In this document: piece after piece, positions 49,454 through 57,397 of the stretch | Numbering within the stretch: position 1 is the stretch's first letter | How the letters are laid out: every line of letters starts with the position of its first letter | Assembly: GCF_030013595.1 (NCBI RefSeq) | Contig: NZ_CP122768.1 | DNA from: Escherichia coli | Lineage (GTDB): Bacteria > Pseudomonadota > Gammaproteobacteria > Enterobacterales > Enterobacteriaceae | Length of the DNA stretch: 64,000 nt | Direction: 5' to 3' (one strand) | Notes under the pieces: model-generated | Database searches by the model: none | Told to the model about the DNA's origin: nothing | What the model saw: the letters and a program-made list of their open reading frames with translations, nothing else | Program-made: the position numbers and the translations under genes

Positions 49454-50701
49454 ATGGCACTGAATATTCCATTCAGAAATGCGTACTATCGTTTGGCATC
49501 CAGTTACTCATTTCTCTTTTTTATTTCCTGGTCGCTGTGGTGGTCGTTATACGCTATTTGGCTGAAAGGACATCTAGGATTAACAGGGACGGAATTAGGT
49601 ACACTTTATTCGGTCAACCAGTTTACCAGCATTCTATTTATGATGTTCTACGGCATCGTTCAGGATAAACTCGGTCTGAAGAAACCGCTCATCTGGTGTA
49701 TGAGTTTCATTCTGGTCTTGACCGGACCGTTTATGATTTACGTTTATGAACCGTTACTGCAAAGCAATTTTTCTGTAGGTCTAATTCTGGGGGCGCTCTT
49801 TTTTGGCCTGGGGTATCTGGCGGGATGCGGTTTGCTTGACAGCTTCACCGAAAAAATGGCGCGAAATTTTCATTTCGAATATGGAACAGCGCGCGCCTGG
49901 GGATCTTTTGGCTATGCTATTGGCGCGTTCTTTGCCGGTATATTTTTTAGTATCAGTCCCCATATCAACTTCTGGTTGGTCTCGCTATTTGGCGCTGTAT
50001 TTATGATGATCAACATGCGTTTTAAAGATAAGGATCACCAGTGCATAGCGGCGGATGCGGGAGGGGTAAAAAAAGAGGATTTTATCGCAGTTTTCAAGGA
50101 TCGAAACTTCTGGGTTTTCGTCATATTTATTGTGGGGACGTGGTCTTTCTATAACATTTTTGATCAACAACTCTTTCCTGTCTTTTATGCAGGTTTATTC
50201 GAATCACACGATGTAGGAACGCGCCTGTATGGTTATCTCAACTCATTCCAGGTGGTACTCGAAGCGCTGTGCATGGCGATTATTCCTTTCTTTGTGAATC
50301 GGGTAGGGCCAAAAAATGCATTACTTATCGGTGTTGTGATTATGGCGTTGCGTATCCTTTCCTGCGCGTTGTTCGTTAACCCCTGGATTATTTCATTAGT
50401 GAAGCTGTTACATGCCATTGAGGTTCCACTTTGTGTCATATCCGTCTTCAAATACAGCGTGGCAAACTTTGATAAGCGCCTGTCGTCGACGATCTTTCTG
50501 ATTGGTTTTCAAATTGCCAGTTCGCTTGGGATTGTGCTGCTTTCAACGCCGACTGGGATACTCTTTGACCACGCAGGCTACCAGACAGTTTTCTTCGCAA
50601 TTTCGGGTATTGTCTGCCTGATGTTGCTATTTGGCATTTTCTTCCTGAGTAAAAAACGCGAGCAAATAGTTATGGAAACGCCTGTACCTTCAGCAATATA
50701 G
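49454..50701 (+). CDS. cscB: sucrose:H+ symporter (MFS, LacY-like)
   Basis: 415-aa 12-TM ORF. Confidence 0.9.
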   Translation: MALNIPFRNAYYRLASSYSFLFFISWSLWWSLYAIWLKGHLGLTGTELGTLYSVNQFTSILFMMFYGIVQDKLGLKKPLIWCMSFILVLTGPFMIYVYEPLLQSNFSVGLILGALFFGLGYLAGCGLLDSFTEKMARNFHFEYGTARAWGSFGYAIGAFFAGIFFSISPHINFWLVSLFGAVFMMINMRFKDKDHQCIAADAGGVKKEDFIAVFKDRNFWVFVIFIVGTWSFYNIFDQQLFPVFYAGLFESHDVGTRLYGYLNSFQVVLEALCMAIIPFFVNRVGPKNALLIGVVIMALRILSCALFVNPWIISLVKLLHAIEVPLCVISVFKYSVANFDKRLSSTIFLIGFQIASSLGIVLLSTPTGILFDHAGYQTVFFAISGIVCLMLLFGIFFLSKKREQIVMETPVPSAI

Positions 50702-51143
50702 ACGTAAACTTTTTCCGGTTGTTGTCGATATCTCCATATCCCTCAACCGGAAAATAATAATACAAAAATGCTTAGCCCAACTAATAATCACCTAATCCAA
50801 ACGCCTCATTCATGTTCTGGTACAGTCGCTCAAATGTACTCCGGATACGCGGTTCGCTGATTTCCAGGACATTGTCGTCATTCAGCGACCTGTCCCGAGT
50901 ATCACGGGCCTGCGAATTCATCAAGGAATGCATTGCAGAGTGAAGTATCGAGTCACGCCATATTTCGCTATCAGGATTCTGTATGATGGTTACATCGCCC
51001 GGCCCAGGGCTGTTTAGTCATCAGCGCTTTCTGACAGTGCTGAGATTTCAACCTGTTGCAGTAAAAATGAGTAGATATAGGGCAAGTGTGCTGCCAAACC
51101 CATCTTTTACGGGGTGAAGGTAGATTTGGTTTGAAGGGTATCT

Positions 51144-51158
51144 GGTGTCCCCTGCAGA
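51144..51158. other. putative prophage att core (attR): 15-nt identity to the 3' end of tRNA-Arg argW
   Basis: Minus strand reads CTGCAGGGGACACCA, matching the argW 3' terminus as recalled, without the rest of the tRNA; lies about 70 bp from the torI-like gene. Confidence 0.45.
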
Positions 51159-51230
51159 CATCTACTTGAGGCGGCAGGGGATTGATTGGAATGGTGTTTT
51201 TTAGATGTGAAAAATATTTTACCCGCTATT

Positions 51231-51431
51231 TTACCCATTGGCGCGGCTTAAGAGCTTATTTTTGAATTCACAATGGTCACGATATAACCATCTTGCTCGC
51301 CCGTGGATAACTTTGGCTTTTGGCAGGTCGCCGGACTTAATCCGGTCATAGATGAAGGTTTTACCGAATCCAGTATCGGCCATGATGAATTTCAAATCAA
51401 CCAGTGAATCAGGCTGTAGTTCGTGTTGCAT
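51231..51431 (-). CDS. torI: AlpA/Xis-family excisionase (recombination directionality factor), TorI-like
   Basis: 66-aa ORF at the prophage edge next to the att core; size and position match KplE1 TorI; identity from recall. Confidence 0.6.
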   Translation of the reverse strand: MQHELQPDSLVDLKFIMADTGFGKTFIYDRIKSGDLPKAKVIHGRARWLYRDHCEFKNKLLSRANG

Positions 51432-51562
51432 GAGTGCTATCTCCGAATAGGGAATCGAACCTGCAAATCAGGCAATAAAAAACCGCCATCAGGCGGCTTG
51501 GTGTTCTTTCAGTTCTTCAATTCGAATATTGGTTACATTGTTTTAATATATGAATAAATAAA

Positions 51563-51775
51563 TTAGCTTTTTTCGTTGCCTTCGCGTTCTTTATTAATTT
51601 TAACAAACTCGTTTTTACCACGCTCTCCAAATGCGTCTTTAGAGTCGTTGTATCCGCAATCGCAGCACACATAATCACCAGACCATCCACGCATTGTTTT
51701 TTCTTTTGCAATATTTCCAGAACCGCATTTTGGACAAGACATATCACTACCTCCAAAGCATGAGTGAGATGACAA
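51563..51775 (-). CDS. small Cys-rich zinc-finger protein (lambda Ea8.5 position)
   Basis: 70-aa ORF with CPKCGSG...CCDCGYN zinc-ribbon-like motifs. Confidence 0.4.
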   Translation of the reverse strand: MSSHSCFGGSDMSCPKCGSGNIAKEKTMRGWSGDYVCCDCGYNDSKDAFGERGKNEFVKINKEREGNEKS

Positions 51776-51838
51776 CGTAACATTGATTGGAGATTAACAA
51801 TAGATTGCTGATGTAAAAGATATGTATAAGCTTCGCTT

Positions 51839-52393
51839 TCAAAGTGGAGGCTCTGGTAGCGGCATCCAGTGTGACGGCTCACATACCACCTCAACACCGT
51901 TCATGTAAAAGAATTGAAATAACCCTTTACCTTTGTGAAACCCTACCATCTGCTCTTTTGTGTCTGAACAATAAACCAAAACATCTTCTTCGTTTGGCAT
52001 CCACTCACTACAGCTTATCCAACCATCTGGAATTACCGGAGAGTTGCCCGACATCTCATTCAACTTGTAAGTCTGGCTTACAGGTTTGGCTTCCAGTTCT
52101 GCAATGCGCTTACCTCCATCCGCGATTACTCCCTCGTAATATTCACGCTGCTCGTTGAGTTTTGATTTTGCTTCCTCAAGCTCAACTCTCAGCTTCCCTA
52201 CCGTTAGCGCAATATCCTCGTTCTCCTGGTCACGGCGTTTGATGTATTGCTGGTTTCTTTCCCGTTCATCCAGCAGTTCCAGCACAATCGATGGTGTTAC
52301 CAATTCATGGAAAAGGTCTGCGTCAAATCCCCAGTCGTCATGCATTGCCTGCTCTGCCGCTTCACGCAGTGCCTGAGAGTTAATTTCGCTCAC
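51839..52393 (-). CDS. Ead/Ea22-like early protein (DUF551-type)
   Basis: 184-aa ORF at the Ea22 position of the lambda early-left operon. Confidence 0.55.
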   Translation of the reverse strand: MSEINSQALREAAEQAMHDDWGFDADLFHELVTPSIVLELLDERERNQQYIKRRDQENEDIALTVGKLRVELEEAKSKLNEQREYYEGVIADGGKRIAELEAKPVSQTYKLNEMSGNSPVIPDGWISCSEWMPNEEDVLVYCSDTKEQMVGFHKGKGLFQFFYMNGVEVVCEPSHWMPLPEPPL

Positions 52394-55533: not shown

Positions 55534-55845
55534 TTAGGCGGCTGATGTTTCTTCTTTCAGGCTTTCGAGATATTTACGTGGGTCGTCGTAACATTGGCAT
55601 TCGCTGTACCAATCCACCCAGCGATCAGTAAGCCCCACCTCTGATAAATCTTCATCGGTAAGGCTCTCATCCCACATCTCAAGGCCGTTAGCATTGCAGT
55701 AATCAGGCTTGATGTTGTTGTCATACTGAAAGGCGTCATAATCAGCCAGTGCGTCCATCAGGCGAACACCCTCTTCAACACTTGCCACTTCTACAATGAA
55801 CGGCTTCATAGGTACTTGCGGGATATGCCAGACACGTAATTTCAT
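55534..55845 (-). CDS. hypothetical acidic protein (lambda ea10 position)
   Basis: 103-aa ORF, strongly acidic, Trp/Cys-containing. Confidence 0.5.
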   Translation of the reverse strand: MKLRVWHIPQVPMKPFIVEVASVEEGVRLMDALADYDAFQYDNNIKPDYCNANGLEMWDESLTDEDLSEVGLTDRWVDWYSECQCYDDPRKYLESLKEETSAA

Positions 55846-55989: not shown

Positions 55990-56316
55990 CTACATAATCA
56001 TTCCGGTTATTATTACCATTTCAATATCGCTATCTTTCATAATGATTGGAGTTGAGTTATCAACTTTACTTTTACTCCATTTTCCTGCATCAGTTTTTAC
56101 CGCTCCACAATAAGAAAGCCAATCATCATCACAATGTTCTGGATCACTAATTCTGACAAGAACACGTGATAGTGCTTTTTCGATACTTTCATCACAATTA
56201 GCATTTGTGTAATTGCCGTGAGACAATTTCAAATCGTTAACTTCATCTTCATTGGCATCAAAAATATAGATTTCAGTCGACTCTGGAACATTTTCATAAA
56301 CCATTAAAACTTTCAT
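55990..56316 (-). CDS. hypothetical protein, AT-rich moron-like gene
   Basis: ORF 55990-56397; likely start ATG 56316 (MKVLMVYENVPE...) after GGGG RBS; low GC relative to flanks. Confidence 0.45.
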   Translation of the reverse strand: MKVLMVYENVPESTEIYIFDANEDEVNDLKLSHGNYTNANCDESIEKALSRVLVRISDPEHCDDDWLSYCGAVKTDAGKWSKSKVDNSTPIIMKDSDIEMVIITGMIM

Positions 56317-56356
56317 TTTTACCCCATATTGTTTATGCCAAAAATAAAGGCCACCA

Positions 56357-56557
56357 TTAGGCAGCCTTGTTGTTCTGTTTACCAAGTTCTCTGGCAATCA
56401 TTGCCGTCGTTCGTATTGCCCATTTATCGACATATTTCCCATCTTCCATTACAGGAAACATTTCTTCAGGCTTAACCATGCATTCCGATTGCAGCTTGCA
56501 TCCATTGCATCGTTTGAATTGTCCACACCATTGATTTGTATCAATAGTCGTAGTCAT
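56357..56557 (-). CDS. ral: Ral-like small Cys-rich protein (restriction alleviation), tentative
   Basis: 66-aa ORF with CGQFKRCNGC motif at the ral position and size; identity from recall. Confidence 0.5.
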   Translation of the reverse strand: MTTTIDTNQWCGQFKRCNGCKLQSECMVKPEEMFPVMEDGKYVDKWAIRTTAMIARELGKQNNKAA

Positions 56558-56627
56558 ACGGATAGTCCTGGTATTGTTCCATCACATCCTGAGGATGCTC
56601 TTCGAACTCTTCAAATTCTTCTTCCAT
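56541..56627 (-). CDS. possible 28-aa acidic leader peptide (MEEEFEEFEEHPQDVMEQYQDYPYDYDY)
   Basis: Short ORF with strong GAGGTGA RBS 6 nt upstream of ATG; its stop overlaps the ral-like start. Confidence 0.25.
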   Translation of the reverse strand: MEEEFEEFEEHPQDVMEQYQDYPYDYDY

Positions 56628-56685
56628 ATCTCACCTCAAATAAGTGGTTTGCTGCCTAATTTCATTTTCTGGCGACCAACACAAG

Positions 56686-56958
56686 TCATCTTGCTGTCAG
56701 CTGTTTGGATTTCCTGTAGCCTGCCGCGTAAATGGCTACATTTGGAAGACAAGTTGAGCCTTCATATTTTCTGGTCAACGTTGTCAGTGTTATTACTTCT
56801 GCTCTCATTACTGGTTTGCGTTTGCATTGTAAGACCACTCGTGAAGGGGTTGGCCTGTGTAGCTTGTCAGAGCTGATCGCCTCCTGACTTTGCAGGTTTG
56901 CACGACGAGCTCTACGGCGAGAAGCTGCGGTGCCTTTAAATTCTGTTTTTCTGGACAT
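56686..56958 (-). CDS. N-like transcription antiterminator (P22 gene 24 type)
   Basis: ORF 56686-57030; start refined to ATG 56958 after GGGAGGA RBS; arginine-rich motif AASRRRARRANLQ; C-terminus ...IYAAGYRKSKQLTAR. Confidence 0.75.
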   Translation of the reverse strand: MSRKTEFKGTAASRRRARRANLQSQEAISSDKLHRPTPSRVVLQCKRKPVMRAEVITLTTLTRKYEGSTCLPNVAIYAAGYRKSKQLTAR

Positions 56959-57056
56959 AGATTCCTCCCGAATAAACTTTGGCGATGCAATCTCGAAGCT
57001 CCTCCTGAGACGGTTGCTTCGGCATTGCATCCCACAGCTTATATGGTTGGGTGATC

Positions 57057-57070
57057 TGGCTTTTCAGCCA
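57057..57070 (-). promoter_or_regulatory. putative nutL boxB hairpin
   Basis: Transcript-sense UGGCUGAAAAGCCA stem-loop between the putative pL and N start. Confidence 0.35.
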
Positions 57071-57148
57071 CGTAGTCGAGTGTTCGACGTTGTTTAAAGA
57101 GCCTGCCAGTCTGCTCCGTTTGGCTTACAGCGTCCTGCTGACGGTTAA

Positions 57149-57177
57149 ATAGTACGATATGTACTTTATTGGGTCAA
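57149..57177 (-). promoter_or_regulatory. putative pL promoter
   Basis: TTGACC -35 and TACTAT -10 with 17-nt spacer on minus strand upstream of N. Confidence 0.35.
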
Positions 57178-57397
57178 TACAATTTGTTCTAAAATGGGGT
57201 GATTTTTTATAACGCTTTGTATTTAATAGTGTTGTTTTTTAGCGTGGGTGTATCGCCTCGGCGATGTAAGGAGAGATCAGAATTGCGTGGTTTAGTGAGT
57301 TGTATCTATTTATTTTTCAATAAATACATTTGGTTATGTGTCTTTAGGTGGGGGCGTGAGGCAAAGAAAACCCGGCTCGGTGGCCGGGTTGATGGGA

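Follow-up and report, generated by a model that had tools for sequence, protein, structure and literature searches.

Judged from its sequence, the 66-codon open reading frame (ORF) studied here, which lies in a window of 64,000 nt (the whole stretch of Escherichia coli DNA that was analysed), is ral itself in a common allelic form, and the earlier label 'Ral-like' understates this. The translated product (MTTTIDTNQWCGQFKRCNGCKLQSECMVKPEEMFPVMEDGKYVDKWAIRTTAMIARELGKQNNKAA) and lambda Ral are identical at 65 of 66 residues (BLASTP E 2e-50), with K7T as the sole difference, and it is this identity, together with T7 being the family consensus, on which we call the gene a common allele of ral. We hold it very probable that it is the lambdoid-prophage orthologue of lambda Ral and that, by homology, its product would act on type IA restriction-modification (R-M) systems. 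A preliminary description had given the position and 66-aa size of the gene and its CGQFKRCNGC motif, all of which were found as described (Table 1; the motif spans residues 11–20). The match to lambda Ral that it had claimed was borne out by the significant pairwise alignment, by an end-to-end match to Pfam PF11058 'Antirestriction protein Ral' (residues 1–66 on model positions 1–66, E 1.7e-48, 162.5 bits with a cut-off of 25), and by the PHROGs entry phrog_1055 'restriction alleviation ral' (E 1.9e-49). The identification concerns an already known function, that of a textbook gene in a very common allele, and in related E. coli genomes RefSeq already carries it under the name 'antirestriction Ral family protein'.

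Alleles and family of Ral

Matches to the ral gene were obtained by Megablast in 100 of 50,697 phage records, with a DNA identity of 99.5% to HK544, ev017, ev207 and others, and of 98.5% to lambda (J02459 34089–34287, where the feature is annotated ral). Since its DNA is this close to the ral genes of both lambda and HK544, the 66-codon ORF is not a chance reading frame. In tblastn, the T7 form of the protein matches Ral from phages HZ41, PhiR63_2 and ev017 with 100% identity, and a 100% identical protein is also encoded on 20 IMG/VR contigs; a scan of IMG/VR with the Ral alignment retained only loci that were 97–100% identical and added no diversity. The 301-bp module formed by ral and the small upstream gene orf28 was present at an identity of at least 90% in 888 of 5426 complete E. 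coli genomes.

The Ral family is represented by only 87 clusters in a search of 5.8 billion proteins, and the members aligned over their full length in that search were all at least about 63% identical to the window protein. The named sources were all Enterobacterales, namely Escherichia, Salmonella, Citrobacter, Kluyvera, Cronobacter, Providencia, Proteus, Pantoea and Erwinia. Ral family proteins are single-domain proteins of approximately 59–68 aa, to which the 66 aa of the window protein conform. An alignment of 41 members has T as the majority residue at position 7, with the lambda K being an exception, and contains an invariant C11 and cysteines at positions 17, 20 and 26 that are at least 90% conserved, as well as invariant W46, R49, T50, T51, M53 and I54 residues. 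All of these are present in the window protein, which therefore has both the conserved WAIRTT-MI segment and the CX5CX2CX5C cysteines. Neither NCBIfam nor PADLOC provided a model matching Ral.

The orf28-ral module in the pL operon

On the minus strand, the order of features is a pL-like promoter, a nut-like region, the antitermination gene N, orf28, ral and a hairpin (Table 1). We take the region between promoter and N to be nutL-like on account of its resemblance to boxA/boxB, and the first of its hairpins was also detected in the consensus scan. The preliminary description placed ral immediately promoter-distal to N, which was right as to the pL operon and needs amending as to the distance, as ral starts 128 nt after the end of N at 56686 and the gap contains a conserved 28-codon ORF. 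The consensus scan found no terminator-like site between pL and ral. The hairpin at the ral stop codon has a predicted RNA folding energy of -13.9 kcal/mol (z -2.6 versus shuffles), and in DNA alignments the hairpin and the sequence following it are kept in lambda and HK544.

Table 1. Features of the window in and around the prophage early region, with their coordinates, strand and supporting evidence.
Feature	Coordinates	Strand	Evidence and remarks
cscB-type permease of the csc sucrose-utilisation genes	49454..50701		Adjoins the TorI ORF; left-end region 49454..51900
66-aa ORF identical to a protein annotated TorI (excisionase)	51231..51431	-	Prophage start
P22 gene 17 homologue, 'superinfection exclusion'	55534..55845	-	PF17420 E 5.6e-55; same pL operon, flanked by terminator-like hairpins
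108-codon ORF (MKVLMVYENV...)	55990..56316	-	Just downstream of the ral hairpin; phrog_4658 'unknown function'
Terminator-like hairpin across the ral stop codon, then TATTTTTGG	56347..56368	-	Consensus scan
ral	56357..56557	-	ORF call; 66 codons, ATG to stop, end coordinate including the stop
orf28 (lambda lambdap47), acidic, 28 aa, MEEEFEEFEEHPQDVMEQYQDYPYDYDY	56541..56627	-	Annotated CDS in lambda, J02459 34271-34357
Mosaic junction: last 17 codons of HK544-type N (MTCVGRQKMKLGSKPLI), out of frame after the N stop	56636..56688	-	DNA alignments, frame translations
N antitermination gene, 90 aa	56686..56958	-	PF25694 N_peptide E 2.2e-32, positions 5-100 of 100; phrog_271
Putative nutL-like region: boxA-like GCTCTTTAAACA, then short hairpins GTCGAACACTCGAC and TGGCTGAAAAGCCA	57056..57102	-	Read from the sequence
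pL-like sigma-70 promoter, TTGACC-17-TACTAT	57149..57177	-	Consensus scan, 9/12 matches; between the repressor-side genes and N
Terminator-like hairpin	57390..57369		After the NYN gene, just before pL
NYN-domain protein, 285 aa	57398..58255	-	PF01936 E 6.8e-9; phrog_5783; between the cI-type repressor and pL
Dam-family N6-adenine methyltransferase, 175 aa	62234..62761	+	PF05869 Dam E 2.3e-64, positions 1-167 of 169

The N protein is only 34% identical to that of HK544 (68 aligned residues), and this allele differs from both lambda and HK544 N. The DNA in common with HK544 starts exactly at the stop codon of the window N, and continues through orf28 and ral to approximately 30 nt past the ral stop codon, while similarity to lambda sets in only a little before orf28 and stops past ral where that to HK544 does. 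From these boundaries we therefore regard orf28, ral and the hairpin as one mosaic module, and the remnant of an HK544-type N that directly follows the window N is, as read from the alignments, a recombination scar between two N alleles.

The adjacent placing of N and ral is that of HK544, whose Ral (AFH20603.1, the Ral control of Silas et al. 2023) is encoded by DNA that is 99.5% identical with the same N-orf28-ral spacing; the protein differs in one residue (K7 in HK544, T7 here), and the shared DNA block takes in the 3′ end of HK544 N, whereas the window N itself is a different allele. Lambda Ral (J02459 34087-34287) has the same 66-aa length, the four cysteines, the overlapping upstream orf28, the hairpin at the stop codon and the location in the pL operon, but has K7 instead of the consensus T7, is separated together with orf28 from N by approximately 750 bp (the sieB region) rather than directly following N, and is followed by ea10 where the window prophage has an AT-rich 108-codon ORF. 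The Ral protein of Salmonella phage P22 (NP_059603.1, annotated 'restriction alleviation') is 73% identical, and has T7, the four cysteines and an upstream orf28; it differs in being 64 aa long with a different C-terminal tail, and in having sieB/esc between gene 24 (the N analogue) and ral. As in the window, ral follows N in HK544, Salmonella, Pantoea and unassigned metagenomic loci, and in Providencia and Erwinia it occupies the corresponding slot, after the repressor.

The 28-codon orf28 overlaps the ATG of ral by 17 nt in a different frame, and its Shine-Dalgarno sequence (GAGGTGA) is far stronger than the AGGA of ral, which sits inside orf28. It matches a PHROG of its own (phrog_16060 'unknown function', E 7e-19). 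Of 12 diverged ral loci compared, 11 have it upstream of ral with equal frame and overlap; these come from Escherichia, Salmonella, Providencia, Erwinia, Pantoea and two metagenomic contigs without assignment, and the one that lacks it is a Citrobacter locus (L093). In six 28-codon versions compared over codons 2–23, the variable sites at codon positions 1, 2 and 3 numbered 4, 3 and 18 (of 22 each), and the peptides keep 10–13 acidic, 0–1 basic and 6–7 aromatic residues, with 12 D/E among the 28 residues of the window version. The concentration of variable sites in third codon positions indicates that orf28 is a real micro-gene under selection on the peptide. As far as the aligned loci can tell, its conservation with ral across genera is the only point made here that goes beyond what is known, and it is a modest and mildly new one.

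These features raise the question of whether ral and orf28 form one functional two-gene module, in which translational coupling would set the dosage of Ral, or in which the peptide would be a partner or co-effector. The conserved frame and overlap, the peptide-level selection, the disparity of the two Shine-Dalgarno sequences with that of ral lying within orf28, and the existence of a separate PHROG are all consistent with such a module, and the role of orf28 could have escaped notice since over-expressed ral is active by itself. That same observation, namely that over-expressed Ral suffices to block EcoKI (10.1101/2023.04.06.535777), argues that orf28 is not required for Ral activity. In addition, the Citrobacter locus carries ral without orf28, and an AlphaFold2 model of an orf28-(G4S)4-Ral fusion, with only 11 paired sequences, reached a pLDDT of 47, which lends a complex no support and does not speak against one. 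In lambda, orf28 is a nonessential 'hypothetical protein' of which the knock-down had no plating phenotype (PMC10695390). We therefore consider a functional two-gene module possible but doubtful, and suggest only tentatively that orf28 may be an overlooked functional part of the Ral anti-restriction module, either as a dosage leader or as a peptide co-acting on type I enzymes.

The prophage carrying ral

The window consists of E. coli chromosome up to approximately 51.5 kb, with the evgAS, emrKY, dsdA and csc sucrose genes, and the prophage continues beyond the right end of the window. Upstream of pL are a gene encoding an NYN-domain protein and a cI-type repressor gene with HTH_3 and Peptidase_S24 domains, and downstream of ral are the 108-codon ORF, the P22 gene-17-like gene, cIII/kil, gam, bet and exo. 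Neither an integrase gene nor a tRNA gene was found at the left end of the prophage, and the rest of the window likewise has no integrase.

An intact ral gene could still be an irrelevant passenger, never expressed from a prophage that is defective or permanently repressed. Such a reading would fit the lack of an integrase in the window, where the left end shows nothing but torI, an excisionase gene next to the csc locus, and the pseudogenes that close relatives have in this region (the NYN gene, the methyltransferase and an N-flanking fragment). Against this, none of the genes for Ral, orf28, N, the repressor, O, P and the methyltransferase is interrupted or truncated, a pL-like promoter is present, and the integrase presumably sits at the far end of the prophage, outside the window. 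On balance we regard a silent passenger as unlikely.

Three further genes of the early region were recorded. The NYN gene occupies the slot of rexAB in lambda, its product has weak PADLOC matches to HEC-09 and NYN nuclease, and the closest complete genome has the gene in separate fragments; it is a candidate for a defence or exclusion gene expressed in the lysogen. The 108-codon ORF has a GC content of 34–37%, compared with approximately 45–50% in its flanks, and in lambda and HK544 only a short segment stands in its place, after which the sequence they share picks up again. From its sequence context, the ORF has the appearance of an accessory gene ('moron') that was inserted. This ORF had no Pfam, NCBIfam or PADLOC match. 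Silas et al. described 'orf184' as a ral-linked trigger of gop-beta-cII (10.1101/2023.04.06.535777), and two 10-residue strings of the 108-aa product were absent from the supplements of that study, giving no link to 'orf184'. The P22 gene 17 homologue has its P22 counterpart annotated as 'allows growth on phage Fels2 lysogen', and a close homologue is the accessory gene UDP0144 screened by Silas et al. (10.1101/2023.04.06.535777).

The preliminary description also suggested that the prophage may carry two independent anti-restriction strategies, namely ral and an orphan adenine methyltransferase in the nin region. Both genes are present: the methyltransferase gene directly follows ninB, and its translation has no internal stop and contains WNNPPYS with an intact NPPY motif, while the orthologue in the closest complete genome (NZ_CP148326.1) is a pseudogene with an internal stop. 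It looks orphan, since no restriction or nuclease gene was seen beside it. That the methyltransferase protects the phage is conjectural, and the suggestion of two independent strategies, supported only in part, is plausible.

Predicted action of Ral on type IA enzymes

Since the window protein is 98–99% identical to Ral proteins that have been tested, we infer that it has an anti-restriction function. Lambda Ral turns the type IA methyltransferase M.EcoKI from a maintenance into a de novo methyltransferase, and within a minute of ral induction unmodified lambda survived 800-fold better, pointing to a direct interaction (PMC3874165). Sensitivity to Ral was traced to HsdM, in its N-terminal ~150 residues, and enzymes of types IB and IC are unresponsive (PMC12707154). 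CRISPRi knock-down of ral decreased the plating of lambda, an effect confined to hosts in which type I restriction was active (PMC10695390), and HK544 Ral expressed alone blocks EcoKI (10.1101/2023.04.06.535777).

On this model, transcription from pL after infection or induction would lead to early production of Ral, together with N. By homology to lambda Ral, the protein would then act directly on type IA enzymes (EcoKI, EcoBI and relatives), and remove their preference for hemimethylated DNA, with the result that unmodified phage DNA would be methylated de novo and restriction would be alleviated. Both the biochemical effect and its limitation to type IA enzymes are transferred from the lambda Ral literature and would apply here by analogy; the hsd type of the host itself lies outside the window.

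Other phage and plasmid proteins, such as Ocr of T7 and ArdA, likewise defeat type I R-M systems. These proteins mimic DNA, block both restriction and modification, and trigger abortive-infection sensors, whereas Ral has been described as hyperactivating the methyltransferase (10.1101/2023.04.06.535777; PMC2993543), and HK544 Ral, unlike Ocr and ArdA, triggered no cell death in any of the strains tested (10.1101/2023.04.06.535777). A DNA mimic of the Ocr/ArdA type was rejected for the window protein, as it is not acidic (10 K/R versus 8 D/E), and it did not match DNA-mimic anti-restriction families in Pfam or PADLOC; the orf28 peptide is acidic, and in our judgement its 28 residues are too few to count it among such mimics. 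The Lar protein of the E. coli K-12 Rac prophage was reported to act as Ral does (PMC2993543). No search with the window Ral, including Pfam and the search of 5.8 billion proteins, brought up Lar as a homologue. We presume that Lar constitutes a separate family.

Structure prediction contributed little to the mechanism. A sequence search of the PDB with Ral gave nothing at E ≤ 1, and the AlphaFold2 model, built from the 41-sequence alignment, was of low confidence (mean pLDDT 67, pTM 0.31), with only a C-terminal helix (residues 45–65) and a small hairpin (36–43) predicted. This low-confidence model had no match in the PDB at E ≤ 0.001 when searched with Foldseek. The four-cysteine motif is possibly a metal site. 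The CX5CX2CX5C spacing could also be read as that of a small zinc-finger regulator or DNA-binding protein unconnected with restriction and resembling Ral only superficially, a reading that we give practically no weight, since lambda Ral and the window protein agree at 98% of positions from end to end and no further Pfam or NCBIfam match was found.

For practical use, the gene can confidently be annotated ral. Any well-conserved allele, taken with its orf28, would suit structural work on the four-cysteine motif and on the contact of Ral with HsdM. Like approximately one-sixth of the complete E. coli genomes, the prophage studied here has the standard counter-measure of the lambda type against type IA restriction.
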